Below are positions 25,370 through 56,723 of a stretch of DNA of 64,000 nucleotides, piece after piece. Positions within the stretch are counted from its first letter, which is position 1. Each line of letters opens with the position of its first letter. Source of the stretch: a virus; the IMG/VR virus record IMGVR_UViG_3300042373_001362, positions 84,356 to 148,355 of that record; one strand, 5' to 3'. Below the pieces are notes generated by a model. That model searched no databases, was not told where the DNA came from, and worked only from the letters and a program-made list of their open reading frames with translations. The position numbers and the translations under genes are program-made.

Positions 25370-25484
25370 ACCTAAATCTTAGACAAACCCACCCATACCC
25401 GACAAGTTTCACTACGGGCAGGTAGTTGGGACTATGATGAGTTCAGATAAATCTATCCATACGGATAGGAAGGACACACGGAAA

Positions 25485-26510
25485 ATGGCACACGAACTAG
25501 AGTTTGACCGTAAGGGCTTGGCGAAAATGGCTTACGCTGACCGAGAAGTGCCGTGGCACAGGCTAGGAACGCCTATGAAGGGCTTACAGACGGCTGAGGC
25601 AATGCTGGCAGCAGCACAGGCTGACTATGACGTAGTTCTTGCCAAAGTTGCCGTAGTAGACGACGAAGGCAACTTCATCACCAACCCTGACGGGACTCCT
25701 GTGCTGGTGGACGACAGCCGTGCCACAGTCCGAGTGAACCCTGACGGCTCATTTGACGGATTGTCCACAGTTGGGACAAGGTATGTAGTCCAACAGAACC
25801 GTGAGTGCCTTGAGTACGCCCTCGCCATTGTGGGTGCGTCTAAGGGTGACGCAGTTGTGGACACTTGTGGAGTTCTCCACGGTGGGCGTGAGTTCTTTTC
25901 ATCTATTGACTTGGGTGGTCTAATCATTGACCCCAAGGGAGTGAATGACAAGATTGAGCGTTACCTGCTTGTTCGCAATGGTCACGATGGCAAGACAGCG
26001 ATTACTTTCGCAAACACAAGCATTCGTGCCGTTTGTAAAAATACCGTTATCGCTGGAATGAACAATGCTCAACGGGTATTCACGGCTCGCCATACAAGAA
26101 ATGTGGAAACTGCTCTCGCAGAGGCTCAAAGCATTCTCAACATCTCAACCGAGTGGGCTAAGTCGTTCAGCGCAACAGCCGAGAAAATGTTGTCAATCCC
26201 GATGAGTTTGAGTTCAGCAAGAATGGACACGCTTATCGGTGCTCTCTATCCCGAAAAGCCCCAAGAAACCGACAGACAAAAGCGCAATAGGGACAACATA
26301 ACTATGACCATTCGTGCTCTCTATCAGACAGAAAGAAACTCTGCTGGATACGGAGACAACGGCTGGTCTGCTTACAACGCTGTCGTGGAATACCTTGACC
26401 ACTACCGAGACGGTGGAGTTACGGAACGGGCGATTGCGTCTATGGACGCAAACTCATCAGTCACACACAAGAAGATAAAAGCCCAAGAAGTTATCTTGTC
26501 ATTCGCTTGA
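25485..26510 (+). CDS. DUF932 / phage-plasmid family protein
   Basis: MAHEL..VPWHRLG..YLLVRNGHDG..IRAVCKNT..RHT..WSAYNAVVEYLDH. Confidence 0.85.
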   Translation: MAHELEFDRKGLAKMAYADREVPWHRLGTPMKGLQTAEAMLAAAQADYDVVLAKVAVVDDEGNFITNPDGTPVLVDDSRATVRVNPDGSFDGLSTVGTRYVVQQNRECLEYALAIVGASKGDAVVDTCGVLHGGREFFSSIDLGGLIIDPKGVNDKIERYLLVRNGHDGKTAITFANTSIRAVCKNTVIAGMNNAQRVFTARHTRNVETALAEAQSILNISTEWAKSFSATAEKMLSIPMSLSSARMDTLIGALYPEKPQETDRQKRNRDNITMTIRALYQTERNSAGYGDNGWSAYNAVVEYLDHYRDGGVTERAIASMDANSSVTHKKIKAQEVILSFA

Positions 26511-26556
26511 CACACCCACGGGTTATCATTGTTGTACGGACTGAAGGGACGGAACA

Positions 26557-27042
26557 ATGGATTTCTTTGATGAAGAAGACGACGAAACGTTCGCAAGCCC
26601 CGAGGAGCTCGCTGTCTGGCTGAGCGAGTTTATGGCTCAAACATCAGACGCAGAAGTAATGTACCGAAACCACTTCTGTACTATGATTGCTAACCGTGTC
26701 TATGACGAGTTCGGACACGAAGGCCTGTGCGAACTGATGATAGCAATGGACAAGAAGGCTGGCTGGATTTCGGACATCATCATTGAGAACAATGACCTCG
26801 ATGAAATACTGTTCAAGAAGTACGGCGTGTATGACCACAACATTGTCTCAAAAGCTCGCAAAACAGAAGCCGTTCAGGAAATGAACACAAAGATTTGGAA
26901 GTTACGCCGTAAGTACGCCAAAGCAATAGTGGACGAGCTGATGGTAGCCCCGTCTGACCCCACCCCGATTGACCCACTGCTAGAAGAACAAGAGACGCAA
27001 AAGCCCACCGACAGCGACAACGGTGGGACTTCTACGGAGTAG
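26557..27042 (+). CDS. Hypothetical protein
   Basis: 161-aa ORF. Confidence 0.65.
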   Translation: MDFFDEEDDETFASPEELAVWLSEFMAQTSDAEVMYRNHFCTMIANRVYDEFGHEGLCELMIAMDKKAGWISDIIIENNDLDEILFKKYGVYDHNIVSKARKTEAVQEMNTKIWKLRRKYAKAIVDELMVAPSDPTPIDPLLEEQETQKPTDSDNGGTSTE

Positions 27043-27087
27043 ACAACGGGGGGCGTTGCCTGCTCAGATTTGTGAGGTTGCGACTAT

Positions 27088-27321
27088 TTAGTAGTCGTCA
27101 TCATCACCCCAGCCGATACCAGCAAGGGCGTTAGCGTCAGCCCAGCCGTCAGTTTCGTACGGCTCCGTACTGTCATCACGGACAACGCAGTCGCAGTCAT
27201 CTTCACATTCGCAGTCTTGCTCCCACTCACAAGCACCCTCGTGCTCAAACTCCAAGTCGCAATTTACGCAATACGACATAATGTAGGGGGCAGTTTCGGC
27301 AATTTCGCTGTTCATTTCCAT
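27088..27321 (-). CDS. Small acidic Cys-rich cassette gene, paralog of 44879..45151
   Basis: Array promoter at 27328-27357; C-terminus WADANALAGIGWGDDDDY. Confidence 0.7.
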   Translation of the reverse strand: MEMNSEIAETAPYIMSYCVNCDLEFEHEGACEWEQDCECEDDCDCVVRDDSTEPYETDGWADANALAGIGWGDDDDY

Positions 27322-27361
27322 ACACACAGATTAGCAAGACCCACCCCAGCCCGACAAGTTT

Positions 27362-29272
27362 CTACATTCCCATCAGGTCAAACAGCAGTTGTGCTGTATC
27401 TACATCATCTACGGGTGAACCACCGTCTACAGCCCTATTGACCACGCTTCTCTTGCGTTCTATGAGGGAATAGATTTCCTCATCTATCGTGCCGTCTGTG
27501 AGTAGATAGGTAGCCACCACGCTTCCCTTCTGCCCTAATCTGTGGCATCGTGAGTATGTTTGGTCTACATCAGCAGGCGTCCACGGTAGTTCCACGAATA
27601 AGACATCTTGCGCCGATGTCAGCGTGTGACCCGTCTTGGCTGCCTGAATGGACAGCACGATAACCGGGGCTTCCTCTACCGGCAGCGTTTGGAACTTCTT
27701 CTTCTGTTCCTCTACTTCCTCAACGCTCATTCCACCCTGAATGCGTAGGTTGCCGAACTTCATTGCTAACTCATCAACAATGTCTCTGTGATGGGCAGCG
27801 ATTACAACTTTCTTTCCATCTTCTATTCGCTGCTTTACCCATTCTTCTACTACGGGCATCTTTGCTCTTGCTGACAACCTTCGCAGCACAGACAAGCGAA
27901 CTAAATGTTCGTTGCTTTCTGCTTTGATGCGAGCAACAACGGCAGCAGACCCTACGGGTTCTCCAAGTTCTCTCGCTATTTCCTTTGCTCTGTCAATGAG
28001 ATACTGAATAATGTCTACTTCTGCTTTTTTGTATTCTTTCATCGCAGCAGCACTTCCCTCAACCAATACGGGGCTGTGGATGACAGGGGGCAGTTCCGAT
28101 AGCACTTGGTCTTTTGTTCTCCTGATGTAGCAAACACCACGAAGCCGTTCGTTTAGTTCGTCAAGGTGTGAATGTCCACTGATGTTCCATTGACCGAAGC
28201 TGTCCTGAAAAGCGTTACAGTAACGCCGATAAAAGCCCCACAAACCACCGAATTCTTTTAGTTTCCCAAGAATGTCGAGTTGTGATGCGTACTCTGACGG
28301 GCGATTAGTAACGGGTGTTCCTGTTAGACAAAGAACAATTCCGTCTTTTGGTGCGCTTTTAGCAATCTTTTGTGCGCTTTTGGTTCTCTGTGCTGTAACA
28401 GTTTTACAGTAATGGCTTTCGTCAAATACATAGGAACGATGTTTAGACAACTCTTTTTCCCATTTGGTAATGTTGCTGTATCCAACGACAACGACATCAT
28501 AAGTTCCACTTTCGGGGAATTCTTTTCTGTTCGTTACAACCGAAACTCTCCGACTAGGAAGCCAACGGGCGTATTCAGCTTGCCAATTGAGAACAAGAGA
28601 AGGTGGGCAAACAACGACTGCTGGGTAACTATCCATAACATACTCAACGGTGGCAATGGCTTGGAGAGTTTTGCCTAGACCCATTTCATCAGCAATAAAA
28701 GTTCTGCGAGCATTGGAAGCGTAAGCAACGCCTGCCCTCTGATAAGGAAGAAGTTCTGCCGTTAGTGACGGAATAGAAATCTCAGCATCTACTGAGCGAG
28801 AAGCCTCAATGAGAGCATTTAGATTATTTGTGACATTCTCTGAACACGACCTTAGTTCATCGGACACCTCAATGTCAAAGTATTCAGCCCACCTGATGAC
28901 ATCATTCGCCGATGTCAACGGGGCCCTCCACGCCTTCTTGGTTGCGTTCCAAGTGATAGACGGTATTTTCTTGACGCTGTTGATGACTACCTTCTCATAC
29001 GGGAATGTAATAAAAATCCAATCGCCTTCTAGCCAAATGGAATTGACAGCTTTCCTAACCGGTGGGGTGATTAGCAGTATCTCTGTATCAACCTCTATGT
29101 CGTGCTTTATTGCGAAAGCTCTTGCTTCGGACATAGAGGTAACCGGAACTCTCCATACCTTTGAGACCTTGTCCCATTTAGCCCCTGCGATTTTTTTGAC
29201 CTCATCAACTTGGTCTTTGTCGTAGGGAAAATCGAGAATTATTTGGTCGTCTACAAGTCTTGCCGTGCTCAT
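27362..29272 (-). CDS. SNF2-family helicase with two N-terminal HARP-like repeats
   Basis: ADEMGLGKT, DESH, LTGTP, RRTK, SRCHRLGQ; duplicated FPY..VKKI...W....W. Confidence 0.9.
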   Translation of the reverse strand: MSTARLVDDQIILDFPYDKDQVDEVKKIAGAKWDKVSKVWRVPVTSMSEARAFAIKHDIEVDTEILLITPPVRKAVNSIWLEGDWIFITFPYEKVVINSVKKIPSITWNATKKAWRAPLTSANDVIRWAEYFDIEVSDELRSCSENVTNNLNALIEASRSVDAEISIPSLTAELLPYQRAGVAYASNARRTFIADEMGLGKTLQAIATVEYVMDSYPAVVVCPPSLVLNWQAEYARWLPSRRVSVVTNRKEFPESGTYDVVVVGYSNITKWEKELSKHRSYVFDESHYCKTVTAQRTKSAQKIAKSAPKDGIVLCLTGTPVTNRPSEYASQLDILGKLKEFGGLWGFYRRYCNAFQDSFGQWNISGHSHLDELNERLRGVCYIRRTKDQVLSELPPVIHSPVLVEGSAAAMKEYKKAEVDIIQYLIDRAKEIARELGEPVGSAAVVARIKAESNEHLVRLSVLRRLSARAKMPVVEEWVKQRIEDGKKVVIAAHHRDIVDELAMKFGNLRIQGGMSVEEVEEQKKKFQTLPVEEAPVIVLSIQAAKTGHTLTSAQDVLFVELPWTPADVDQTYSRCHRLGQKGSVVATYLLTDGTIDEEIYSLIERKRSVVNRAVDGGSPVDDVDTAQLLFDLMGM

Positions 29273-29308
29273 TGCTATTATTCTACTCTCTGAAACAAAG
29301 GAGAGCGA

Positions 29309-29557
29309 ATGCCCTTAGAACAAGAACCAACGGTAGAAAGTCTCAGCAAGAGAATTGACGAGCTCGAGCAAATCGTCAAGCAACTCAAGACAACTATCGA
29401 GAGAATGGAAAGCTCTACAAAGAAGCTTCCGGTAATTCCACAAATTTCTATTCCCGGCTCACTTGGTGACAACACTCTGTCTATTGGCAAAAGACAAGCG
29501 ACACTCCACGAGAACGAGCAACGCCTAGCGTGGGAACGAGCAACCGGGGCTCAGTAG
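29309..29557 (+). CDS. Small coiled-coil protein
   Basis: AAGGAG SD, 82 aa. Confidence 0.6.
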   Translation: MPLEQEPTVESLSKRIDELEQIVKQLKTTIERMESSTKKLPVIPQISIPGSLGDNTLSIGKRQATLHENEQRLAWERATGAQ

Positions 29558-29628
29558 AAAGTAGAGTGCCACAGAACTAGGGGAACAGCGACGAAAACCC
29601 TAGCCCTGTGGCAGACCGAACTCTATCA

Positions 29629-30144
29629 TTAGCAGATAGAGAAACCCCCACACTCTGAGAGAAACTCAGCAAACTGCGAGACATTCTCAACATTGAACGG
29701 ATAGTGCGAAGCCCACGATTCTTTTGTGCCCACTCCGTCACAAGCGTTACACCAACCGTGTGTGCGACCTGTAAGAATCTGAACCTCTACCGATAGTTCA
29801 CGCTCAGGATGTCCAGACTCAATGCCTAGTGCGTCTCTGCGTATTCCAGTCGCTTCACACAAAGCGCAATCCTCACGGGGAAGGTTTGCTATGTATTCGT
29901 AGTAAGACTGCTGATGAGCAAGAGCCCCACCATTTTCTATTTCCTCACGGAGAATGTTTGCCAACTCCAATGAGCCTTCCTCATCTAGTCCTTCTCCGTC
30001 ATTGGTATGACCACTCACTTCACTACATAGGTGAGGTGCGACTATTTCGCAATAATCCCACAGTGGTCGCCACCACCAAACATTGTTACGAAAATACTCA
30101 CCCTTCTCGCTTGAAGGATTCTGTCCGTAAACATCCATACCCAT
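29629..30144 (-). CDS. Phage hypothetical protein (MGMDVY..WWWRPLW)
   Basis: Array promoter at 30180-30209 on the minus strand. Confidence 0.7.
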   Translation of the reverse strand: MGMDVYGQNPSSEKGEYFRNNVWWWRPLWDYCEIVAPHLCSEVSGHTNDGEGLDEEGSLELANILREEIENGGALAHQQSYYEYIANLPREDCALCEATGIRRDALGIESGHPERELSVEVQILTGRTHGWCNACDGVGTKESWASHYPFNVENVSQFAEFLSECGGFSIC

Positions 30145-30298
30145 AGTCGCTTTTCCTCTCGGCTCGCTTGTTTCTCTCAACATTATCTCAACCCACCCTC
30201 AACCGACAAATCTTTATCTGTGAGGCGGGGCTCACAGATAAAGAAGCACTCAGTGTCGGGGGGTGACACTGAGTGCTTACTGGAGAGAATTGCTGGGG

Positions 30299-30451
30299 CT
30301 AAACGCCCTTGGCGATGAGCAGGTCTATCAAGACGACGAGACGCTGGGCGTCCATCTCGCTCTTTGTGATTCTGCCACGCTTGAGCTGGTCGTCCAACTT
30401 CTCCAACTGGAGAAGGGCTTGTTCTATTGGGGATGTCGCTGTTGTTTCCAT
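30299..30451 (-). CDS. 50-aa leaderless cassette gene (METTATSP..), not in the ORF track
   Basis: ATG 36 nt from the -35 of the minus-strand promoter. Confidence 0.6.
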   Translation of the reverse strand: METTATSPIEQALLQLEKLDDQLKRGRITKSEMDAQRLVVLIDLLIAKGV

Positions 30452-30487
30452 AAGAACAGCCTAGCATCACCCACCCCAGGCCGACAA

Positions 30488-30503
30488 TGTTTCACGTGAA
30501 ACA
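30488..30503. other. parS site (perfect)
   Basis: TGTTTCACGTGAAACA. Confidence 0.85.
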
Positions 30504-30569
30504 TTTTGCCCGACAAGAGCCCCGATGGCTAACTTGTCGGGCAAGGGTGGGTCGGAGTAAGGTGGAGGT

Positions 30570-30734
30570 ATGAACACGGCACCAGAAAAACTGACCAACC
30601 ACCAAATGCTCAACAAGATTGAGGAAGTGATGAACTCCTTCGAGCATCGCCAAGACTGGAGCGACACGGACAGGAAGGTCTTCCTCAGCCTCCACGAGGC
30701 TTGGAAGGCACTCGCTGAAGCAGTCGCCCTCTAG
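30570..30734 (+). CDS. 54-aa leaderless cassette gene, not in the ORF track
   Basis: ATG at +36 from promoter 30534. Confidence 0.6.
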   Translation: MNTAPEKLTNHQMLNKIEEVMNSFEHRQDWSDTDRKVFLSLHEAWKALAEAVAL

Positions 30735-32390: not shown

Positions 32391-32491
32391 AACTCTCGAC
32401 CACAGGAACGGCAGCCTGTGGTCGACAAACCCCCTGAGCCCCGGCTATTGGGGGTTTGTCGGTTTGGGGTGGGTACTGATAAAGTGGAATC

Positions 32492-41591: not shown

Positions 41592-41678
41592 CCAGGCAGC
41601 ATAGACCGGATGGCAGCAAAAACACGGGGCTCAAAACAGATTTGTCGGTTAGGGGTGGGGGGTAGTAAGGTGGTTCTT

Positions 41679-41885
41679 GTGAGGGAGACCCACCGCCTCT
41701 CCTCCGATACAACCGAATCGCACCAGTCCCTCCGCAGGATAAGGCTCTGGACAGCAAGCCTCTGATGGGCGTACGACCATCAAGCATCCGCCACAGTCCA
41801 CCCGTCCTCCCTCTCGCGCGATAACTGCTCTAGGCTCGGGGGTGCTAGCCCCAGTATCGGAGGTGGGGCGGGGGGTCTTTTTCTT
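41679..41885 (+). ncRNA. Structured non-coding RNA, copy 1 (6S-like rod)
   Basis: Array promoter 41642, no credible ORF; 41681-41710 pairs with 41854-41883; ends in a U-tract; homolog at 43313. Confidence 0.7.
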
Positions 41886-41954
41886 TGTGCCAAAAGCGGG
41901 GCTTGGCACAAAGAAAGTTTGTCGGTCGTGGGTGGCCTGTTCTAAGATTGTCTT

Positions 41955-42672: not shown

Positions 42673-43312
42673 GATAGAGACATGGAAACAGCACAAGCAT
42701 TCATCATCGTCACTTGGTTCTTGGTCAAGTGTGCAGGACTCGCAATCTTTGCAGTCGGCGCATACACCACTATCCAATGGATTAGGAAAAATGTCTCATT
42801 CTTCACTTACGAAGATGTAGACCCATCAGAAGACCCCGACTGGGTTCGGGAAAACTACGGATAACAATCCGTAGACAGCGACAGCGAGAAAGTTCTTGCT
42901 CCCAGTTTGTCGCTGTACTGGTTGAGCAGAAAGAGAAAGAGTCACTTTCGGGTGGCTCTTTCTCTATGTGGAGCCCCGGTTCTCCGGACAAAAAGAAAGA
43001 GCCCCAGCAATAAAGCTGAAGCTCCTCTTTCCTTGTGACTCACCATTAGAGCTCTCAAGGAAGAGCTTATGTCTGGTCGTGAGCCAATCCAGCAAGGGGG
43101 ACTTCCTTACCCGATAGTTGGTATCTGCCGATGTCCCTAACCCAATCGAGCTAAGTACGGTTTCGTTCCTCAACAGCAGTGTCCCTGACTGATAGGTAAA
43201 CATTACCAGCATTTCTCCAGCTTGTCAACTCAGATAGTCGTGGCCTCAATCTAGGCAACGGGGCTCATTTCCCGATTTGTCGGGTCAGGGGGGGTGGTGA
43301 TAAATTGGTCTT

Positions 43313-43521
43313 GTGAGCGAGGCTCTTCGCCTCTCCCACACACAACATAAGTGCATAGTCTCCCTTCTGGATAAGGCTCTTGTCACTGCGATATCCTCTC
43401 CACTCTCCGGAAGTGCGATGTTCCCTCCAGTCAGACAATCCGTCCTCCTCTGAATAGACCTCTCCTTATGGGGGTGACGACCTCGTGTGTGGGTGGGGCG
43501 AAGGGGCTCGCTCTTTCTTTT
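43313..43521 (+). ncRNA. Structured non-coding RNA, copy 2 (6S-like rod)
   Basis: Array promoter 43277; 43315-43343 pairs with 43485-43513; U-tract; covaries with copy 1. Confidence 0.7.
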
Positions 43522-43554
43522 ACATAGGGGCAAGCCCCGTCTTGCCCCTATGTA

Positions 43555-43570
43555 TGTTTCACGTGAAACA
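43555..43570. other. parS site (perfect)
   Basis: TGTTTCACGTGAAACA. Confidence 0.85.
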
Positions 43571-43612
43571 TTGGACTTGTCGGTCAGGGGTGGGTGCGAC
43601 TAAGGTGGGGGT

Positions 43613-43915
43613 ATGGAAACAGCAACAACATTGGAAACATCAGTCGGCAACCAACTCCCAAAGGGAAACGGCTCATTCTCGGTCACTACGATTGTCAATG
43701 GACTGATTATCACGCCAAGCAACTCATCAGCGATTAGTCAAATCAACTACCTCGCTGATGACAGCGTTCTTGTCGTGACATACAGCAACGGTGGTATGTA
43801 CCACTACAAAGAAGTCCCAGCAACGGTGGTATTCCACTTATTGGTTGCCGAGAGTTTTGGGAAGTTCATCAACGCACACATCAAGCCACACTACGAGTTT
43901 CGCAAAATCTGGTAA
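43613..43915 (+). CDS. KTSC-domain protein 1
   Basis: SSAISQINY..VLVVTYSNGGMYHYKEVP..LLVAESFGKFINAHIKPHY. Confidence 0.8.
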   Translation: METATTLETSVGNQLPKGNGSFSVTTIVNGLIITPSNSSAISQINYLADDSVLVVTYSNGGMYHYKEVPATVVFHLLVAESFGKFINAHIKPHYEFRKIW

Positions 43916-44386: not shown

Positions 44387-44402
44387 TGTTTCCCGTGAAA
44401 CA
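44387..44402. other. parS site (one mismatch)
   Basis: TGTTTCCCGTGAAACA. Confidence 0.7.
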
Positions 44403-46074: not shown

Positions 46075-46383
46075 ATGACAACAGCGAAGAGCACGCAGAA
46101 TGTTTCACGTGAAACATTTGAGCGAATCAGTGAAGCGGCCGAAGAATTGCGTAAAGCACTCAAGGCCTTGAACCCAGAGACAGGGCAACTGCCCTCCTAC
46201 AGCAATCCTCACCCACGAGGATGGACATCGTCTTGGGAGGTCGCCCGACCTTGGGATGACACGACAATCTCCAATGCAGTCCACTACGCATTCGCCCTCA
46301 TCCTTGACGAGGGCTGGGAAGATGAGATGGCCGAGAAGCAGGCCGAACTTGACGAGTTCAACAAGGAAGACGAGGAGGGATGA
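46075..46383 (+). CDS. Cassette hypothetical protein containing an in-frame parS
   Basis: Leaderless ATG at +36 from 46039; parS translates as NVSRET. Confidence 0.65.
   Translation: MTTAKSTQNVSRETFERISEAAEELRKALKALNPETGQLPSYSNPHPRGWTSSWEVARPWDDTTISNAVHYAFALILDEGWEDEMAEKQAELDEFNKEDEEG
46101..46116. other. parS site (perfect)
   Basis: TGTTTCACGTGAAACA. Confidence 0.85.
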
Positions 46384-46773
46384 TGGACTTCATTCAGGAA
46401 CCAAAACTGATGACCAGAGTCAAGAAGGAGAAGCCCAAGGAGAAGACCAAGTACAAGGTCAGAGGATGGGTCGAGGACTTGATGGAGAACCCGAACCGAT
46501 GGGCAATCTATTCACGCCGACCGCTAGACCGACAGGGCATGGTCATGGCCTACAGTTCAATGGATGGATACAGGAAGCGCTACCCACACATTGAATGGGC
46601 AATCTCAAAAGAAGATGACGCTTACGCAGTGTGCGGCCGATACACACCGCCGACCGAGGAAGGGTAATCAGGGGAGCGGGGCTTACCTGATTACCGGTAG
46701 CTGAAAACTTGTCGGTCAGGGGTTGTTTCAACTAAGGTTTATTTATGAAAACATTTGCTGAGAGGGCAGAGAA

Positions 46774-47202
46774 ATGATGAGAACGCCAGAACTAATTGCA
46801 CAAGACCATCTTCAATGGTGCGTGGATAATCAAGACGACTGTTTCTTCAAACCAGAAGCAGAGTTGTACGGTGTCACAGATAAAGAGCAGTTTGTAAAGA
46901 TTGCATCTGCAAAAGATGTCTATGCCCTGCTGGAAATCACTTACTCACTTCCACACAACAAGTACATCGCTCTCGCTATCCATGTAACAGGGCTAGCGTC
47001 TCCCTTTGATGAAGATGACCCAACTCCACCATCAGAAAGAGAGGACAGCAGGCGAGTCTCTCTCATCACTATCACCACAGAAGAGGGTATGGGGTCAGCA
47101 CTAGCCTTTTCAGATACAGAAGAGATAATCACAGATGAAGGTGAAGCGTCTGGGGGTCTAGCAGAAGCACTGCTCGATTGTTGGTTCAGGTCAGCATCAT
47201 GA
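46774..47202 (+). CDS. Hypothetical protein, paralog of 49581..50054
   Basis: Shared RRV.L..F.DT.E..TDEG.A.G.LAEA. Confidence 0.7.
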   Translation: MMRTPELIAQDHLQWCVDNQDDCFFKPEAELYGVTDKEQFVKIASAKDVYALLEITYSLPHNKYIALAIHVTGLASPFDEDDPTPPSEREDSRRVSLITITTEEGMGSALAFSDTEEIITDEGEASGGLAEALLDCWFRSAS

Positions 47203-47400: not shown

Positions 47401-47502
47401 AATTCCGTTTGTCGGGGAAATGACCAGAGTGTCCGTACTTCATGACGGTGGTGGATGAGTCTGAATTTGTCGGTTAGGGGTGGGTGCTACTAAGTTGGTG
47501 GC

Positions 47503-47949
47503 ATGACGAAAGCACTTTTCATCCCAGCGACAGGCGAACCACGCACCATCATTCTCCCAAAGGAGAACGCACACAAGACAATCCACGAACTAATCGGTGG
47601 ATGGTTTGACTGTGTGTCCCTATCTAACGAAGTTGTCATGTATGTCCATGACGAAGGTCTGCTCATCGGGCTTGACCCCAATGTCACTGCCAGCACCCTG
47701 TACGGCAACCCCATCGCTGGCGATGTTCTCTTGGTCGGCACACTCAACGCACAAGGCGAGCGTGACGGCTACGACTACGACTTGCCCGAGTTCATGTTTG
47801 AGCCAACCTTTGTGGCACGAGTGAACGAAGTGAACAGCAACCCAATTCACCGAGAAATAATCTCTCTCTACATGGCACAGATGGACTTGACTCCACGCAT
47901 TACAAGCCTGACAGATGACGAGTTCAACGAGTGGTTGGGGGCTAAGTGA
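47503..47949 (+). CDS. DUF3846-like protein
   Basis: LIGGWFDCV..MYVHDEGLL..N..A....IAGDVLLVG. Confidence 0.7.
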   Translation: MTKALFIPATGEPRTIILPKENAHKTIHELIGGWFDCVSLSNEVVMYVHDEGLLIGLDPNVTASTLYGNPIAGDVLLVGTLNAQGERDGYDYDLPEFMFEPTFVARVNEVNSNPIHREIISLYMAQMDLTPRITSLTDDEFNEWLGAK

Positions 47950-48293
47950 TGTTTGACGAAGAACCAATCGCACAACTTGAACGAGAGTTCACCAAACTTG
48001 AATTGTCGGTCATCATTGAAGCACTAATCAACTATCGCAGTGGTGGTGTAAGACCCGACTTTGACTCAGTAGACCCTGAGACAGTCACTATGGAGAACAT
48101 TGACAAAATTGAAATTCCTGTCAAAGAGATGACCGAAGAAGATGAAGAAACAATCACAGAAATGATGATGTTGTTCATCGCTGGATTTACTCAGGTTCTC
48201 AGCGCAGAAGCTGAGATGATGGAAGAAGCAGTCACCAAAGGCACAAAGACGCTCATGGGTGAAATTACAGAATTCCTGAAAGAGCAGAAGTAA
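47946..48293 (+). CDS. Acidic hypothetical protein
   Basis: Coupled ORF. Confidence 0.6.
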   Translation: MMFDEEPIAQLEREFTKLELSVIIEALINYRSGGVRPDFDSVDPETVTMENIDKIEIPVKEMTEEDEETITEMMMLFIAGFTQVLSAEAEMMEEAVTKGTKTLMGEITEFLKEQK

Positions 48294-48373
48294 TCCCCCG
48301 GCTAGATACAGGGGGCGGGGCTCCCTGTATCTAGATTTGTCGGTCAAGGGTGGGTAGAAATAAGATGGAGAAC

Positions 48374-48946
48374 ATGAACAAGATACAAGTATCAGCACGC
48401 AAGGGTGGCCTAGGGACAACAACAGTCGCTTGTGCTATCGCACTCACCTATTCACGCAATCACCCAACACTCAAGGTTGGCTTGGTTGATGGGTCTAGGT
48501 TCAACGACTGTCTATCAGTGATGGGTCTCAACCCTCAATCACCAAGCATTGACGGAGTTACCATTATCGGCAAAGAGACAGACGGCTATGACGTTCTTGT
48601 CATTGACGCTGGAGTTACTGACCGACTAGACCCTGACGCAATCATTGTGAATGTCGTTCGCAATGAATACCTGCCTCTCAGAGCAGAGACATTCGCACGC
48701 TTGAAAAGCGACTACACAGTCGCTCTCATTCACGAGGACAACGCTCTCACTGCCAAAGATGTCGCCAATGTTCTTGGGGCAAAGATTATGAACTTCCCTA
48801 TCTCATCACAGATGAGCAGAGCCATTGACGCTGGAATGTTCACTTCACGATTTGAGCAACTAGGTAACGAGTGGGCTACCGAGTTGGTGGAGAGCCTTGC
48901 GTTTAGGAACGGCCACGAACTTTTGTCGGTCAAGGGTGGGGAGTAG
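48374..48946 (+). CDS. ParA/MinD-like P-loop protein with a degenerate Walker A
   Basis: SARKGGLGTTTVA..LVD..YDVLVIDAG. Confidence 0.7.
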   Translation: MNKIQVSARKGGLGTTTVACAIALTYSRNHPTLKVGLVDGSRFNDCLSVMGLNPQSPSIDGVTIIGKETDGYDVLVIDAGVTDRLDPDAIIVNVVRNEYLPLRAETFARLKSDYTVALIHEDNALTAKDVANVLGAKIMNFPISSQMSRAIDAGMFTSRFEQLGNEWATELVESLAFRNGHELLSVKGGE

Positions 48947-48958
48947 TAAGGTAGAGAC

Positions 48959-49243
48959 ATGGAAACGAACACACTCAACGAATACAACGAACTACGAATT
49001 GGCGACAAGGTTGGCAGTGGTGGCGAACGAATGGTTATCGCCCACACGAAGCGCAACGAACGCATTGTTGGCGAACTCTACGCAACTTGGATTGCCATTT
49101 GCGTAGACGAGACAGCGTTCCACCCTTACGCCGTTTGGACAGTCGTGGCTCGCCCTAACGGCTGGCACGCCGAGAGTGGCGACTACTGCAAGACGCTTGA
49201 TGAAGCGTTGGTCGCCTACAAGGAGCGAGGTGGAGAGGCGTGA
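48959..49243 (+). CDS. Cassette hypothetical protein
   Basis: Leaderless ATG at +36 from 48923. Confidence 0.7.
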   Translation: METNTLNEYNELRIGDKVGSGGERMVIAHTKRNERIVGELYATWIAICVDETAFHPYAVWTVVARPNGWHAESGDYCKTLDEALVAYKERGGEA

Positions 49244-49580
49244 GAGTAGACCTCTCCACTTCCATTGAGCAACTGGATTTTGTGCACAGCCTCTTTCAAG
49301 AGCTCGAGACACAGAATGTCGAGTTGCCAATGGGGGACTATCACCTCATTTATCACTATCTCGAGAATGCTCGAGAGGCCCTCATTGAGTTTGAGGAAGA
49401 ACTGGAAAGCCAGCTCGAGTAGTTGGTTTTCTTTTTCCTGAGCCCCGATTTATTGCTGCATCCACCGGGAGCAACGGGGCCCCCGATGCCACCACTCCAC
49501 TATCTACGAAACTTGTCGGTTAGGGGTGGGTCTTACTAATGTGGTACTCGCAACAGCAACTCCCACGAAAGGGGAACACA

Positions 49581-50054
49581 ATGTCCACCACACTCACCGA
49601 AATCGCCACCGAAGCAGAACTCTTTGTTCATGACTTCTTGGGTGCTTTCACCAACGAACAGGACAGTCTCTACATGAGCAACGCCCACCTTCTTGTTGTC
49701 AAGGCAACTGATGACGGCGTAATCGTTGAGCCTGTCACTTCTGGCGAAGATGTGTACGAACTCATTGACGAAGTAATCGCTGAAACTCCGTTTCCTGTTC
49801 GTGCTTCTGACATTCTCGCCATTGTCACAACAGGGTGGGCTGCCCCACTCAACGAACAAGGCGAAGTAGATGGGCGACCTTCTGAACACGCACAACGCCG
49901 TCGTGTCCGTCTTATGTCATGCGTTCGCCGTAGTGACCTTCGTGTAGCAAGCGTTCTCCGTTTTGGAGATACTGACGAAGTAACTACTGACGAAGGAAGC
50001 GCAACGGGCGCACTTGCCGAAGCCATGCTGGCTCTTGGTAACGCTGGCAAGTAA
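49581..50054 (+). CDS. Hypothetical protein, paralog of 46774..47202
   Basis: Promoter 49513, AAGGGG SD. Confidence 0.7.
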   Translation: MSTTLTEIATEAELFVHDFLGAFTNEQDSLYMSNAHLLVVKATDDGVIVEPVTSGEDVYELIDEVIAETPFPVRASDILAIVTTGWAAPLNEQGEVDGRPSEHAQRRRVRLMSCVRRSDLRVASVLRFGDTDEVTTDEGSATGALAEAMLALGNAGK

Positions 50055-50434
50055 TGAACAACTACTACCGTTTCTATCGGGCAGTTTGGGTGGGGAGAGT
50101 TACGGCTCTCCCCACTACCGAGCTGTACGGTGCTGTTGTTGGCACTTACTACCCAACTGATGACACCGACCTTTCTACTGCCATTGCCGACCTTGCTTAT
50201 GAAGAACTAGCTAGGCGTGGCGAAATGAGACCCCGGGGCTCAGCCACGCCTACTGTCGCAAAACTTGTCGGCTTGGGGTGGGTGTGACTAAGGTTGAGCC
50301 ATGACCAACGAACAAGAACAAGAAATGTGTGAGCGCAACTACTGTGACGAAGTAGCCGTGAACACTTGCCCTAACGGTTTCCTAGTGTGCCAAGCGCACG
50401 CTGAAGAGGCATGGGAGAAAGACGGTATCCACTC

Positions 50435-50857
50435 ATGAGCGAGACAGTTATCGCCACTGGCGAAATCACCAATACCTGCACCTGTCTTCTTTATGAGGAA
50501 GACGGTGAAACAAAGTCAATTGACGAAAAATACGGTTCTTCCTGTTTCGGAGACTGTTGGGAGTTCGCCGTTGAGGACTTTGCAATGATTACTGAGGAAC
50601 TTCGCAACTCAAATGAGACCGACTGGTGGAAGGTTGAGGACTTGCGCTTATGGAGTGGCAATGTCTCAGGCTACTTTCACGGAAAGACCGTCTCAGCCAT
50701 TATTGAGGGAATGACAGTCCGTAGCGAGTGGAACATGACCTACAAGGTATTCAGTGACCGTATTGAGTATTCACTCAGCCACCATGACGCAATGGGTAGC
50801 GCAAGCACGCTACGCCCTGTCTCTGATGATGAGCGTGAAGAAATGGGGCTCTACTGA
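50435..50857 (+). CDS. Hypothetical protein
   Basis: Coupled to a 45-aa leaderless ORF starting at 50301. Confidence 0.6.
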   Translation: MSETVIATGEITNTCTCLLYEEDGETKSIDEKYGSSCFGDCWEFAVEDFAMITEELRNSNETDWWKVEDLRLWSGNVSGYFHGKTVSAIIEGMTVRSEWNMTYKVFSDRIEYSLSHHDAMGSASTLRPVSDDEREEMGLY

Positions 50858-51105
50858 TGAGCATGGAACTTGACGAACGTAATTGGACAGAACTGGCGAA
50901 CTGTAAAGACATGGACAAGTCCGTGTTCTTCCCTAGCACTGTTACTGGCATAAAGGTTGCTAAGAAAGTGTGCTCCACCTGTCCTGTATCTGCCGAGTGT
51001 CTGCAGTACGCAACCGACAACGGGCTTGAGTACGGAGTGTGGGGAGGACTTGGAGAGAGTGACCGACTTAGGTTGGCGAGGGACGCTAGGCGTGCCGGGC
51101 TCTAA
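50857..51105 (+). CDS. whiB: WhiB-family transcription factor (second copy)
   Basis: W..LANC..VFFP..AKKVCSTCPVSAECLQYA..YGVWGG..R. Confidence 0.93.
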   Translation: MSMELDERNWTELANCKDMDKSVFFPSTVTGIKVAKKVCSTCPVSAECLQYATDNGLEYGVWGGLGESDRLRLARDARRAGL

Positions 51106-51266
51106 CCAAGCTCCGGAGCCCCGGGCTTGCGTGGGGACAGCAAGTCTCCCCACGCAACTCACTTTCGTGCCGGTGCGCTAGGGCTGGCCATGAAGGGGCT
51201 CCCTTACTTGACGGTGGTGGAAGAGAAACTTGTCGGTCAAGGGTGGGTTCTACTAAGGTGGCAGAC

Positions 51267-51734
51267 ATGGGATTAGACCAATATTTATACGCAAAGAACT
51301 ACCTCTCACCAATGGAGTGGCGAGGTGAAGAAATGAAAGACAAGTTCAACGCTGTTGCTGACGCAATCGGAGTTAGGGACTTCATGGACAAGGAAATGCC
51401 TTCTATCCAATGCCAAGTGAAGATTGGCTATTGGCGAAAGGCTAATGCCATTCATGATTGGTTCGTACAGAACTGCCAAGACGGAAACGACGATTGCCGT
51501 GAGAGTTATGTCTCTGTTGAGCAACTAGAGGAACTTCGCAAAGTCTGCAAAATGGTCTTAGAGAACCACGCACTAGCAAGCGAGCACCTTCCAACTAGTG
51601 CTGGCTTCTTCTTTGGTTCGCAGGACTATGACGAGTGGTACTTCCGAGACCTTGAAAGCACCGTTGAAATCATTGACAACGCCCTCTCTAAGATTTCTGA
51701 CGATTGGTCTTTCTTCTATCAGAGTTCGTGGTAA
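51267..51734 (+). CDS. Phage hypothetical protein (MGLDQY..YWRKANAIH..GFFFG..YQSSW)
   Basis: Leaderless ATG at +37 from 51230. Confidence 0.75.
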   Translation: MGLDQYLYAKNYLSPMEWRGEEMKDKFNAVADAIGVRDFMDKEMPSIQCQVKIGYWRKANAIHDWFVQNCQDGNDDCRESYVSVEQLEELRKVCKMVLENHALASEHLPTSAGFFFGSQDYDEWYFRDLESTVEIIDNALSKISDDWSFFYQSSW

Positions 51735-52052
51735 GTCATGGCTCTCAACGCAAAAGAAAGTAGCTTTGACTGGCTTGTCTGTGATTGTGGAAATAATCCA
51801 CATTCCGACGGGTTTGACACATGCCTCAAGGACGGAACGGTTGTCCATCCAACGCCCGATGAGTGGGACGGAATTCATTACATTTGTTATCGCTGTAACA
51901 AGGTTTACAACGTGGACACAATGGAAGAGGTCACCGGGTAAGTCCGGGTACGGGGCTCCCCCCACCGACATACAGAAAATTGTCGGTTAGGGGTGGGCTC
52001 TACTAAGGTGGGTATTACCAGCCCACCACTACTAGAAAAAAGGAACAGGGAA

Positions 52053-52469
52053 ATGGCACAGAAATCCATAAATGTAAAGGTCAGTACGGCAAAAGTCGTA
52101 AAGGCTTTGGAAACAGCACTCGCTAATCGCAAGAAGCAAATTGCCGATTACGAAAAGTCAGTAGAGAACCACAAAAAGGTTGTCGCTGATTGGGAAAAGT
52201 CCATCATTGAGCACATCAAGTCGGGCAAGGCAAAAGTTTCAGATGTTTCTGAAAACTCAAATTGGCGTACCGATACAAAGGAAGCCCGTGTGACCATCAC
52301 ACTCCCAGCAAGCCTTGTCTGCCCTCAGTCCCCCGAGAAGCCCTCAGAAATGTGGAACATCAACAATGACATTGAGGAGTTGGAGAACGCTATCGCTCTA
52401 CTCAAAATGACAGACGAGGAGTATGTCTCCACAAGCACCTACAAGGGTGTCGCACGACTTATCAAGTAA
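52053..52469 (+). CDS. Coiled-coil hypothetical protein
   Basis: Promoter 51980; leader CTACTAGAAA..AGGA. Confidence 0.7.
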   Translation: MAQKSINVKVSTAKVVKALETALANRKKQIADYEKSVENHKKVVADWEKSIIEHIKSGKAKVSDVSENSNWRTDTKEARVTITLPASLVCPQSPEKPSEMWNINNDIEELENAIALLKMTDEEYVSTSTYKGVARLIK

Positions 52470-52602
52470 GAGGTCGTTTCCATAACGGAGAAAGGGTAGG
52501 AGAAATCCTGCCCTTTCTTTATGCCCGAGCCCCGGCTTGGGCAGCTTTACCGGTTGAGGGAAAATTTGTCGGTTAGGGGTGGGGGGAAATAGGATTGACG
52601 AC

Positions 52603-52941
52603 ATGAACACAAACAAGACACAAAACCAACTGGAGTCACTGATGCAACTCCATTGGGACGTCATCAAATCATTTGGCCCGACAACAGCAATAGAGATTCG
52701 CTTTCACGCAAATCGTTCACTGAAGTCATACCAACTGCTAGCAACATGCTCAGAAGCGGGCTCTGTTTATTACACGCTCCACTACAACCCACGAGGCAAC
52801 TATCCAATGTCACTGAACTACATCAGTGGTCATGAAAAAACTGACGTCACTCTGCCAATGAAAGCCTATTCGGGCTGGCAGTCCGATGTGCTTGCGTGGA
52901 TTATCAGCAACCCCTTCTACACAGTGGACGAGGTCTACTGA
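52603..52941 (+). CDS. Cassette hypothetical protein, first of coupled ORFs 52941..53261, 53248..53508, 53495..53761
   Basis: Leaderless ATG at +37 from 52566; overlapping stop/start chain. Confidence 0.65.
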   Translation: MNTNKTQNQLESLMQLHWDVIKSFGPTTAIEIRFHANRSLKSYQLLATCSEAGSVYYTLHYNPRGNYPMSLNYISGHEKTDVTLPMKAYSGWQSDVLAWIISNPFYTVDEVY

Positions 52942-54274
52942 TGAGGGAGGTAGACGAGACACTGATTGATGCTTGGATTGAGCAATATAAGCCCATCCCT
53001 AATCACATTGGAGAGGGTGGCTGGATTATCAACGAAGTCCCCATCATGTTTGAGACATACGGTGATGAACTTGAATTCGTATTCAATCAACCTGCGCACA
53101 ATGTGTGGACTTGGGTTGATGGAGATGAAGGAAGTTTCATTGTTGCTGGGTTCAGTTATGTGAACAGAATCGGCTATTTCGTCACCAAGGAACCATGGGC
53201 CCAATTTGAAGAGATTCAGGTTGATTACTACGAGGAAGAGGACGACGATGAAGACCTCTGACGTAATCAAAGAATTGTCAAATATTGACAAAGACGAAGA
53301 AGTCATCTGCGTCTGGTTCAAGAAGGAAGACTTCCCCCTCGGAATCAACGACGATTATGAGTACGAGACCCTTCCCAACACTCAGTGGAATGAGGTAGTC
53401 TCTAGGTTTGAGAGCACTAAATGGGACAACCCCACAAGCAGCTCGTGGACGGAAGTCCATAAAGACATCTATCAACTCGTAGGAGAAAAAGTAAATGCAA
53501 GCGTCTGAGGAAGTCAAGAGAGCATTCATGACAAACGCTGTTTCGTTTGTGTTATCTGAATATCCACGCGATGTAGACATCATGGATATCCCGACTCTCG
53601 TTGAGTATGTCGACAAGCGCGTCCTTGTATGGGAACCATTCTCGAGACGCTCCGGCATCGAACTGGCCGACATCATCGACCAATTGTTCGAGATGAATCT
53701 GCAGACACACATGCAGCTGATGGAGGGCGGGGCTCCCGAGCCAGCCAACCACGCCGAGTGATGGTGACCACGCTGCGTGGTTATTCAGAAATCCGATAAT
53801 TCAACAGACTCACCCCAGACAATTTCTACATGACGGTGGTGGAAGAGAATTTGTCGGGTTGGGGTGGGTAGTTGTAAAGTGTTGTTATGAAGAAATTCCT
53901 AATCCGAGTAACAGAATCAATCAATCACGATTACGAGATTGAGGCAGAGACCGAAGAAGAGGCTTTGGCTATCTATTACTCGTACGACAACGACGAACTG
54001 AAAGAACATGACCTTGACGGTCAGGGTGAATGGGATTCACATCCTTGGGAAATTGAGGAACTGTCATGACCGTTTACCGAGTAAGCGTTTGGGCTTCCAT
54101 TGAGGTTGAGGCAGAGAACGAACGAGATGCTGAAGAGAAGGCTCACGATGCTGTCCTCAACGGCGAGATACGGATGCGTGACTACGAGTTCACGGCTGAG
54201 GAAACCGACCATGAGGAAGCAGAACTGCCATCATGAAATTGTCGGTCAAGGGTGGGTCTAACTAAAGTATGTCT

Positions 54275-54604
54275 ATGACCTTTCATCACTACATCAGAGT
54301 TCTTACGGAAGTTGTTTATCCAGAAGACGGCCCGTATTTCCATAAATGGGATTATTTCTCAATTTCCGACGAAGAGCTTCCCGAACGCTTTCGCCCCACC
54401 CCAAACAAGGTTGGGTCGGCTAGCGACAACAACATGAAGTATCTTCACCCTTTGTCGTCAGAACTGTACGACTGGCTCAACGAGGGTGGCTATTGGATAA
54501 AGGGCTGGCAAGAGATTAGCCCAGACCAAGAGAAGTGGCTTGACGAGAATGACATTCTCGCAGGTCAGCAAACAGAGACGACTCTGGAAGCAGAGTTCAT
54601 CTAA
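54275..54604 (+). CDS. Cassette hypothetical protein
   Basis: Leaderless ATG at +36 from 54239. Confidence 0.65.
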   Translation: MTFHHYIRVLTEVVYPEDGPYFHKWDYFSISDEELPERFRPTPNKVGSASDNNMKYLHPLSSELYDWLNEGGYWIKGWQEISPDQEKWLDENDILAGQQTETTLEAEFI

Positions 54605-54670
54605 ATTTGTCGGTCAGGGGTGGGTAGCACTAAACTGACTGATGTCCCCAACTACTAGAAGGAACAGAAA

Positions 54671-55285
54671 ATGCCAAATTGGGTATCAACCACACTGAGC
54701 GTAAAAGGCTCAAAAGAAGAAGTACAGCGATTCGTTGATGGGGTCAAAGACTCCAAAATCATTGAGTCCTATGTACCCTGTCCTGAAGAACTACATGCGA
54801 CAGTTGCAGGCTTTGTCGGAGAAGATAAAGCCGAAGAACATCGCAAGCAACAGGAAGCCAACATTGCCAAGTACGGCTACAAGGACTGGTGGGATTGGCA
54901 GTATGACAATTGGGGAACCAAGTGGGGCGACTGCGATACGCACCTTGAGAAGCCAGCAGAGATGTCAAACGGCTCATGGGAAGTACAGGGCTACTTCTCA
55001 ACAGCGTGGGGTCCAGCCGATACTGCATTTCGTAAGGTCTCAGCACTCTTCCCAACGCTGACATTCCTCTTTGACTACGACGAAGAGGCTGGTTTCTTTG
55101 CTGGTCTCCAAGCGATGAAAGACGGCGAGATTGTCTTTGAGTCAATGTTTGAGCCTTGTAACTACGAGGGAGAACTTGACTATGACGACTACGAGTCAAT
55201 TGACAAGTACGAGGCTTGGAAGACCGAGAACAACGACAGAATCTTTGATGAGTATCAGTTGTTCTTGGGTGGGGTTCCCCAATGA
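54671..55285 (+). CDS. YubB/DUF1281 ferredoxin-like domain protein
   Basis: MPNW..WWDWQYDNWGTKW..FSTAWGP. Confidence 0.75.
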   Translation: MPNWVSTTLSVKGSKEEVQRFVDGVKDSKIIESYVPCPEELHATVAGFVGEDKAEEHRKQQEANIAKYGYKDWWDWQYDNWGTKWGDCDTHLEKPAEMSNGSWEVQGYFSTAWGPADTAFRKVSALFPTLTFLFDYDEEAGFFAGLQAMKDGEIVFESMFEPCNYEGELDYDDYESIDKYEAWKTENNDRIFDEYQLFLGGVPQ

Positions 55286-56071
55286 AAATCAAGCAGGTCA
55301 TAGACATGCTGAGTCGCTACTCACCAGAGGATGAACTGTGCATCCTCTGGTGGGACAAGCCTCAGTTTGACAACCTAGACGGACTAGTCCTTGACGATGA
55401 GGCGTGGGCTCGCATCTGTAAGGAGTTTGACGAGTGGGACAATGCTGGAGCAGATGTAAACCAATGGATTCTTGATGCGAGTATAGACTATGCAGAGATT
55501 TCTAATTATGGAGAAGAAAGCTGATGGATAAGAAAATCAAGAAACACGAATTGATGAGCATTCTCGAGGAGAATTACTACACGCTCTCCACAACTGGCTC
55601 TGAAGCAGTGGCTTCAATCTTTGACGACTACTCGAAGGGTCTGTTTGAGCCGAACCTCGTAGAGTGGGGTATAACCGATGAGCGTCTACTTCAGGTCATC
55701 AACAGTATGGTTGACGACTGGTGTAGGACCGGGAAGATGGAGACGCCTGCAGTCGAGTTCTACAAGCGCAAGGGGTACTTCTTCTCTGACAAGAGGTGAG
55801 CCCTGGAGCCCCGGCGGGTCGCGAAGGCGAAGGGCCCGGGGGAGTTACCGTCTAGACGGCAGCAGACAACTCCGGAGCTCGCGGCGGCATGCGGCAGAAA
55901 ATCAAAAAATCGTATTTAATTCTGGACCGAGTCAAAATTTACTTGACGGTGGTGGATGAGACCAGAAACTATGACACACCCCCTGAAAAAATTCATTTTT
56001 TGAATAACTTTTGTCGGTTAGGGGTGGGTCCCAGTAGAATCCGAAAAACCAACTAATAGAAAGAAGGCCCA

Positions 56072-56575
56072 GTGTCTACAGGATTTATTACAGATGATTT
56101 GATTAATTCGAATCATAAGAAATTGTGGGGGAAAGCTATCGATGAATACGGAGACGCATTCAGAGTTCCACAAGATGTGGCCACAAAAATAAATGAAACA
56201 ACTCGTGCTCTTTACACTCTTCAAGTGTGGCAAAGAAGCGGGGCTGCGGGGAACCCAGCAAAGTTCCTATCGGCCTACTCCATATATCCTGATGTGTTGA
56301 TGGAAGTAGTGCGGGACTTCTGCTCTATGGAAATCGATTCTATGGAAGAAGTGATTGTCAAGACCGAGAAGCGTTCAGATAAATACGATGCTTTCATTGA
56401 CTGGACAAAGGCCCATACATTCGAGCAGTACACCACTGAGCAATTGGTAGAAATAGCTGGATTCTCATATCCCACTACTCTGAAGTTCATCCAGGAGTCA
56501 CCGGTATTCCGCAAGATAAAGAAGGGATTGTGGGAAATCCGTGACCCCAAGGCCGATAGAGAGGCCGATAAATAA
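56072..56575 (+). CDS. Hypothetical protein (possible C-terminal HTH)
   Basis: Promoter 56011; 167 aa. Confidence 0.6.
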   Translation: MSTGFITDDLINSNHKKLWGKAIDEYGDAFRVPQDVATKINETTRALYTLQVWQRSGAAGNPAKFLSAYSIYPDVLMEVVRDFCSMEIDSMEEVIVKTEKRSDKYDAFIDWTKAHTFEQYTTEQLVEIAGFSYPTTLKFIQESPVFRKIKKGLWEIRDPKADREADK

Positions 56576-56723
56576 AAATTGTCGACCAGGGGTGGGTCCA
56601 TATAATCTGTCCCTTGTCAACCCGACAACATTCCCCATATTGACCATCAGACAAAATTTGTCGGTCAAGGGGGGGTGCTGTTAGTTTGTTCAATGTCAAC
56701 CGCTACTAGAAAAGGAACTAGAC

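Follow-up and report, generated by a model that had tools for sequence, protein, structure and literature searches.

A promoter array with predicted leaderless starts and a lineage-specific spacer word in a probable actinophage genome

The stretch of DNA described here (the window, 64,000 nucleotides) makes up the final 64 kb of a virus record in IMG/VR (IMGVR_UViG_3300042373_001362; 148,355 bp), and it contains an array of short, closely similar repeats that resemble promoters, most of which stand at a fixed distance upstream of a start codon. The two ends of the record share a 127-bp repeat, so the assembly closes on itself. The genome encodes an HK97-type capsid protein, a ribonucleotide reductase, a primase-helicase, an SNF2 helicase, five tRNAs, and proteins of the WhiB family. 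The capsid protein has its nearest annotated counterparts in Gordonia and Brevibacterium phages, to which it is 48% identical, and IMG/VR holds more than 400 related contigs, many of which are about 150 kb long. Taken together, the capsid, the WhiB proteins, the remaining gene content, and the number of environmental relatives suggest that the record represents an uncultured actinophage from a large environmental family. A megablast search of 20 kb against GenBank phages did not return a close annotated relative, no tyrosine integrase was found in the genome (serine integrases were not searched), and a search for known RNA families returned tRNAs only.

The promoter array and its predicted leaderless units

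A strict search of the window for the pattern TTGTCG-N18-TANNNT returned 48 matches, whereas 0.39 were expected and the largest number obtained in a shuffle was 2. A weight matrix built from these strict copies and run over the whole 148,355-bp genome recovered 50 copies at a cutoff of at least 20 bits, while the shuffled genome peaked at 6.1 bits. All 50 copies are confined to a 38-kb stretch (18740 to 56687; positions are those of the window unless stated otherwise); the plus strand has 46 of them and the minus strand the other 4. Two of them are variants, one with a 19-nt spacing (34657) and one in which GAGAAT is present instead of the -10 (36288). The motif has an information content of about 44 bits, and its consensus can be written as rAy-TTGTCGG-yyar-GGGTGGG-N6-TAAggT-N6-ATG; GGGTGGG itself has 56 matches versus 6.1 expected. 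A sequence-only reading of this DNA had claimed about 50 near-identical promoters here, and the 48 strict copies and two variants bear this out.

The copies are arranged in two divergent arms. The minus arm (25376 to 30487) has four, at 25376-25405, 27328-27357, 30180-30209, and 30458-30487, with the first T of the motif at 25405, 27357, 30209, and 30487. The plus arm (30534 to 56687) has 45, comprising 43 strict copies and both variants, with the first T at 30534, 30811, 31163, 31755, 32037, 32456, 32946, 34657, 35248, 35963, 36288, 37644, 38339, 38976, 39528, 40063, 40701, 41041, 41642, 41919, 42339, 42646, 43277, 43577, 44008, 44409, 44843, 45264, 45553, 46039, 46709, 47467, 48337, 48923, 49513, 50265, 51230, 51980, 52566, 53851, 54239, 54607, 56011, 56579, and 56658. 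At the point of divergence (30458 to 30563), the promoters at 30458-30487 (minus) and 30534-30563 (plus) stand back to back on either side of a 16-bp palindrome (30488-30503). The switch in strand thus lies where the sequence-only reading had placed it, and the exception that it named is an outlying, atypical copy on the plus strand (18740-18769), in which GAGGGGG replaces GGGTGGG and which has a 20-nt leader. The copy at 30209 on the minus strand is predicted to drive genes of 171 and 70 aa as well as that of the SNF2 helicase (27362-29272).

The anatomy of the repeat can be illustrated with a representative unit on the plus strand (43577 to 43630). With the first T counted as offset 0, this unit consists of a -35-like TTGTCGG (offsets 0 to 6), four variable positions (7 to 10), the spacer word GGGTGGG (11 to 17), six unconstrained positions (18 to 23), a -10 of the form TANNNT (24 to 29), a further N6 (30 to 35), and an ATG at offset 36, which is the predicted +1 and is followed downstream by GAAACAGC. 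The -35-like TTGTCG agrees with TTGACA at 4 of 6 positions and lies 18 nt upstream of the -10 in 48 copies. Within the -10 hexamer, T24, A25, and T29 are present in 48 of the 50 copies, and the inner bases, including the G's at 27 and 28, vary. An ATG or GTG begins at offset 36 in 33 of 48 copies and at offset 37 in 5 more (38/48 in total; the chance expectation is ~3% per position), in agreement with the earlier statement that the start codon lies 36 to 37 nt from the first T and 6 to 7 nt past the -10. About 36 of these fixed-offset starts open an open reading frame (ORF) of at least 42 aa. Sequence conservation also runs on past the ATG, a point that was absent from the sequence-only reading.

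In Mycobacterium smegmatis, ANNNT is found 6 to 13 nt upstream of mapped transcription starts, and SigA prefers the form TANNNT; leaderless mRNAs make up a quarter of the transcripts, a 5' ATG or GTG being enough for their translation (PMC6448022). With -12 to -7 assigned to the -10 of the array repeat, +1 coincides with the A of the ATG. A Shine-Dalgarno (SD)-like sequence is missing in 12 of the 30 fixed-offset genes, whereas all eight of the leadered first genes have GAAAGG or AAAGGA 2 to 6 nt before the start (7 of them at 4 to 6 nt); genes outside the array use GGAGG. The proposal that the repeats are promoters of leaderless mRNAs fits every sequence test that was run, including the fixed bases of the -10, the contrast in SD sequences, and the SigA geometry known from M. 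smegmatis (PMC6448022). It is well supported in silico and accounts for the data clearly better than a start signal acting on the RNA; transcription would start on the ATG itself.

The fixed offset had also been taken to reveal short genes that had been missed. This stood for the genes at 31791, 32982, and 50301, which have orthologs in G022, the closest relative that covers the region; none was found for those at 30299 (minus strand), 30570, and 45300. At the promoter at 46709 (46709 to 46777, plus strand), the fixed-offset ATG would open a leaderless ORF of only 10 codons (46745-46777). Its stop overlaps the ATG of a 142-aa gene (ATGA), suggesting translational coupling.

Constraint on the spacer word and its replacement between lineages

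G022 is collinear with this phage (G000) at ~70 to 75% nucleotide identity, its helicase is 89% identical, and it has 34 copies of a motif of its own in the same divergent layout. Among the copies in this genome, pairwise identity is 0.92 at positions 11 to 17, versus 0.35 at 18 to 23 and 0.34 in the N6 (30 to 35). The constrained stretch in G022 is 7 to 16 (0.83), and positions 17 to 23 are free (0.35). In both cases the neighbors of the conserved block are randomized, which recent copying would not do; thus, the pattern points to purifying selection on particular bases, and the spacer bases under selection evidently differ between the lineages.

Comparison of orthologous promoters indicates how the word has changed. 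At nine promoter pairs shared by this phage and G022, the geometry is kept and positions 13 to 15 differ in 9/9. At the locus 41642, which has no ORF, 211 of 223 positions of the transcribed body are identical to those in G022, compared with 7 of 17 in the spacer (Fisher p = 6e-8). Even at the outlying copy, the sites orthologous to 18740 in G002 and G022 each have the word of their own lineage. The position-specific constraint lends strong support to the earlier view that conservation of the spacer exceeds the needs of a sigma factor, and the rewriting at orthologous sites extends it.

The full motif, sought among 2.9 million viral contigs, was found in a 5-kb fragment of the same phage plus one single-copy match elsewhere. 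A loose scan of IMG/VR returned single chance matches only, and in 20 long relatives the motif did not rise above a reversed-pattern control; L028 (from a 151-kb contig), considered as a carrier of the same motif, proved to be unrelated. The fixed-offset leaderless layout is present in 12 of 57 related loci (loci of at least 9 kb), and the family has at least eight different spacer words. In G022, TTGTYGG is followed directly by GTTGGGTAAG; G002 and L227 have a GTCRCCCGTA-type word; and G004 and G023 have GGAAACTC-type blocks without a TTG -35. In five further lineages the word abuts the -10, behind a GGTTGT -35, and some of these words are only a few bases apart. The TANNNT -10 has the ordinary SigA form in every lineage. 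G010 and G011 have leadered promoters and 40 to 100 copies of a GTAGRTAAGT word on both strands.

What is new here is the concerted, array-wide rewriting at orthologous promoters together with position-specific selection, and this combination favors a lineage-specific DNA-binding protein as the reader of the word. The primary sigma factor does not read the spacer base by base, and such a protein, with the word as its operator on every cassette, would be the simplest account.

A related distribution of short words was seen in other relatives. G011 (L209-L216), G010 (L217-L224), L251-L260, L277, L278, L290, and L295 have 30 to 100 copies of a 10- to 12-nt word of the GTAGRTAAGT or ATAGATAAC type on both strands. 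Only some of these copies overlap the -35 of leadered promoters, and their distribution is stoperator-like.

Hairpins, cassettes, and other elements of the array

Thirty-four hairpins with a GCCCCG/CGGGGC loop and variable stems of at least 5 bp lie between 30213 and 52545, and in most cases the next promoter follows 15 to 45 nt downstream (as for those near 38314, 39500, 41019, 43984, and 48316). The GCCCCG/CGGGGC words are concentrated in the array, which has 62 of the 66 in the genome, and terminator-like sites number 44 versus 18.4 expected. These loop-word hairpins are candidate cassette boundaries or terminators, and since one usually precedes each promoter, the array would be a chain of self-contained cassettes. 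In some cassettes (32424-32468 and 30505-30547), the 3' arm of the hairpin takes in the TTGTCGG of the next promoter, so hairpin folding and -35 recognition could compete.

The genes of the array are almost all unrelated to one another, with only one three-member family and one pair, and tandem gene duplication was rejected as the origin of the array on this ground. Most have no known family; the exceptions include a WhiB protein, a DUF3846 protein, and an AAA ATPase. This phage and G022 have 24 of its 43 plus-arm units and 23 of the 34 units of G022 in common. The genes that are not shared make up whole promoter-bounded units, and a few of the shared units are reordered. The sequence-only reading had suggested that the repeat might supply homology for recombination, and this turnover of whole cassettes supports it.

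A second conserved element lies downstream of the predicted start. Seventeen units have the heptamer ACAGCGA between +1 and +30, where ~0.003 would be expected in each, and they account for 17 of the 43 copies in the genome. When up to one mismatch is allowed, the heptamer defines a subclass of units (25166 to 46100) in which it stands between +5 and +17 of the predicted transcript; it is confined to the units from 25405 to 46039 and is absent from those from 47467 to 56658. Its reading frame is not fixed, as two are used (giving Thr-Ala or x-Ser-Asp/Glu), and three leadered copies have it as well; its placement thus seems to be tied to where the transcript is predicted to start rather than to the protein. 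Among the lineages compared, enrichment was limited to G000, G004, G022, and G023, which are leaderless, and did not extend to G010 and G011, which are leadered. Near the 5' end, ACAGCGA could act as a signal in leaderless translation or in the stability of the message, or it could provide extra homology for cassette exchange.

Some units lack an ORF altogether. At 41642 to 41915 (plus strand), the array promoter is followed by a predicted ~230-nt structured, CCUCC-rich transcript whose body, at 94.6% identity, is conserved better than any other segment shared with G022, and the unit at 43277 to 43530 (plus strand) is a diverged paralog. The ORF-less transcripts would be closed by a long helix (z = -3.5) and contain several CCUCC-like stretches, and a search of Rfam returned no match.

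Two further repeats were observed in this part of the genome. The 12-mer GACGGTGGTGGA is present in nine copies, all on the plus strand (47444, 51210, 53832, 55945, 59650, 60642, 61410, 62561, and 63299), in no consistent reading frame, and three of them are ~20 nt upstream of array promoters. It is kept in relatives with different promoter words (9 copies in G022, 7 in G010, and 6 in G011), and a conserved factor may bind to it. The 16-bp palindrome TGTTTCACGTGAAACA occurs at 30488-30503, 43555-43570, 44387-44402, and 46101-46116, with a mismatch in one copy. Three of these sites closely precede promoters (30487 on the minus strand and 30534 on the plus strand, 43577, and 44409), and the fourth is inside the gene behind 46039; the palindrome is also found upstream of promoters in G022 and looks like an operator for a dimeric regulator.

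Elsewhere in the genome (~55.5 to 79.5 kb), two giant ORFs of 3,963 and 3,490 aa were found (L330:5483-17371 and L331:3034-13503). Their Pfam modules comprise a prohead protease, a UvrD helicase, an ArdC-like antirestriction domain, a zincin metallopeptidase, and an RNase T-type exonuclease, and a large part of each ORF is without a Pfam match.

Reading of the spacer word, rival explanations, and known systems

We propose that RNA polymerase with the host primary sigma factor reads all 50 repeats through the TANNNT -10 and, in this lineage, the TTGT-type -35, and that each promoter is placed such that transcription starts on the A or G of the start codon to yield a leaderless mRNA. A cassette would be composed of a hairpin, a promoter, and one to a few small, mostly orphan genes, and the array would be a hyperplastic early or accessory region in which cassettes are gained, lost, and reordered whole. 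The 7- to 12-nt spacer word (GGGTGGG at -25 to -19 here) would be a separate cis element, maintained by selection in each genome and exchanged throughout the array from one lineage to another. A DNA-binding protein that is encoded by the phage and specific to the lineage would use it as an operator and switch all of the cassettes together, on or off, depending on whether this protein activates or represses. We consider this account, in which leaderless promoter cassettes share a lineage-specific operator, to be moderately likely.

Several results weigh against it, in that no reader was found and four candidates (two WhiB proteins and the proteins P_A and P_B) do not track the word. The sequence-only reading credited the phage with two WhiB proteins, which holds for the window; the genome has three. 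Those in the window are at 8322-8650 and, as the third gene behind promoter 50265, at 50857-51105 (plus strand), and the other is at genome positions 461-652. The WhiB of the array and that at genome 461-652, which are the two that can be compared, keep near-identical C-terminal tails in G022 despite the different word, and the suggested role of WhiB as an activator is thus disfavored. A sigma-region-4/LuxR-type helix-turn-helix is present in two proteins. In P_B (59689-60075, minus strand), the recognition helix is identical across lineages that have different words. P_A (10457-11104, plus strand) is 215 aa long and has its sigma-region-4/LuxR/Mor-like helix-turn-helix at the N terminus. Each of the 14 relatives searched has this protein, and the recognition helix is one of the regions in which it varies more. 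This helix is identical in G000 and G002, yet their 18740-equivalent promoters differ; among distant relatives it does track the word, but this is confounded by phylogeny. No close solved homolog of P_A was found, and its PHROG label, "Rnase E," is uninformative. A reader injected as part of the virion cargo polyproteins was rejected as well, as Pfam shows no transcription factor domain in them and only protease, UvrD, ArdC/metallopeptidase, and exonuclease modules. Finally, all of the words hold a run of G or C, and cassette recombination is evident, with the promoters at 27357 and 38339 sharing identical variable positions. A generic structural need, combined with homogenization within each genome, could therefore imitate a specific reader.

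The same results feed an alternative in which the host polymerase acts by itself. The word would have no dedicated reader, being kept uniform by recombinational copying of promoters among cassettes (molecular drive) and by the circumstance that a G/C-rich upstream spacer makes for a strong promoter, and each lineage would drift to an array-wide word of its own. The lack of a reader among the proteins examined keeps this alternative alive, and the G or C runs and the evident recombination agree with it; so does the constancy of the -35-like TTGT and the -10 across lineages, with only the spacer changing. In early-promoter/stem-loop cassettes (PeSLs), moreover, ~100 bp of promoter/terminator homology can be kept by such processes (PMC2839356). 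Copying should, however, keep neighboring positions alike, yet positions 18 to 23 and 30 to 35 are at 0.34 to 0.35 beside the 0.92 block, and just one promoter pair shares its variable positions. In addition, the constrained positions shift between G000 and G022, and at the locus with the 94.6% identical body the spacer alone was rewritten. On this evidence, we regard promoters read by the host polymerase only as unlikely, although they deserve serious consideration.

Two other explanations seem far less probable. The repeat could act at the RNA level on long polycistronic transcripts, either as a translation signal, with TAAGGT as a ribosome-binding site in the manner of the SAS repeats considered below, or as a processing site at which transcripts are trimmed to the AUG. 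TAAGG and a G-rich N6 do give SD-like matches in 18/30 fixed-offset genes, and a fixed distance to the ATG would suit a translation signal too. The invariant bases, however, are T24, A25, and T29 and not the G's at 27 and 28, 12/30 units have no SD-like sequence, and leadered units have a separate canonical SD; furthermore, terminator-like hairpins are found directly upstream of most copies, and the ORF-less units bear the same repeat. We thus consider an RNA-level signal improbable, and we give slightly less weight still to promoters of a phage-encoded sigma factor or RNA polymerase in place of the host holoenzyme. The ~44 bits of the motif and its lineage specificity resemble phage polymerase promoters, and the blocks in G004 and G023 lack a TTG -35. 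No sigma region 2 domain was found in the phage proteins, however, and there was no match to a T7-type polymerase in a weak search whose control set was itself silent. Region-4-like domains are present only in P_A and P_B, neither of which tracks the word, and the -10 is the ordinary SigA hexamer throughout the family.

If lineage-specific operators in leaderless cassettes are indeed what these repeats represent, this family of ~150-kb actinophages may have an addressable promoter code, in which a host -10 and a leaderless start are combined with a 7- to 12-nt word read by a fast-evolving phage protein. Each lineage could then control its own 35 to 50 cassettes as a block, insulated from coinfecting relatives; ACAGCGA would be a dedicated signal of leaderless messages, and the CCUCC-rich ORF-less RNAs might bias translation away from SD-dependent mRNAs. 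We put this extension forward tentatively, as plausible but short of an expectation.

The array would, if the predicted starts are correct, be among the densest natural sets of leaderless units known (~38 in 38 kb, with matched sets in relatives), and it would be useful for learning what makes a leaderless message efficient in Actinobacteria. The rewriting of the word between phages with ~95% identical capsids offers a clean natural experiment in the coevolution of promoter and reader, and it could yield orthogonal promoter/regulator pairs for actinobacterial genetics. The concept of promoter/terminator cassettes as linkers for gene shuffling would also be extended from T4-type phages to actinophages.

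The joining of an ordinary -10 with a phage-specific -35 or spacer element that is read by a phage protein is a feature of the middle promoters of T4 (MotA box and AsiA, by sigma appropriation) and of the Q binding element of lambda; a difference is that the -35-like TTGT is kept in this lineage, and no homolog of MotA, AsiA, or Q came to light, although no search aimed at them was made. The SAS of Cluster K mycobacteriophages is a conserved repeat just upstream of many start codons and includes a ribosome-binding site, whereas the conserved bases here fit a -10 and not an SD sequence, the G's being variable.

Another comparison is with the stoperators and immunity repressors of Cluster A mycobacteriophages (Mavrich and Hatfull 2019, PMC6550527; PMC9283540). 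Stoperators are likewise dozens of short asymmetric sites that are oriented with transcription, and their consensus differs between lineages alongside a phage DNA-binding protein. The operator at the early promoter of Cluster A phages overlaps its -35. Stoperators are, however, spread over the genome and mostly outside promoters, and the phages are temperate, whereas every site here is inside a promoter at a fixed offset. None of the four candidates examined here covaries with the word as a repressor would, and the integrase search described above returned no tyrosine integrase, serine integrases being outside its scope.

The units themselves have a likeness in the leaderless SigA units of mycobacteria (Cortes 2013 and Shell 2015, as cited in PMC6448022), in which TANNNT lies 6 to 7 nt from an ATG or GTG without an SD sequence, and this geometry has already been used to find unannotated small ORFs in mycobacteria (PMC6448022). 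Those cellular promoters, in contrast, have no common 44-bit consensus and no conserved spacer word, and ~1/4 of cellular transcripts are leaderless compared with ~3/4 of the units here.

The arrangement as a whole is most reminiscent of the PeSLs, which stand beside orphan genes in T4-type phages, in the hyperplastic regions of their genomes, and serve as recombination linkers (Arbiol et al. 2010, PMC2839356; Comeau et al. 2014, PMC4122927). Repeated promoter and stem-loop cassettes around orphan genes in a hyperplastic region, runs of G or C in the stem-loops, and close relatives that differ in having whole cassettes inserted, deleted, or replaced are features of both. PeSLs differ in that they end in a Shine-Dalgarno sequence and a start codon, while the units here are predicted to be leaderless. 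The host here is probably an actinobacterium, and the phage is unrelated to T4, its capsid being 48% identical to those of Gordonia and Brevibacterium phages. A spacer word that is selected and swapped array-wide, as appears to be the case here, is not described for PeSLs. With these distinctions, the likeness provides good support for placing the array within a known kind, as what would be a leaderless actinophage version of PeSL-like cassettes.

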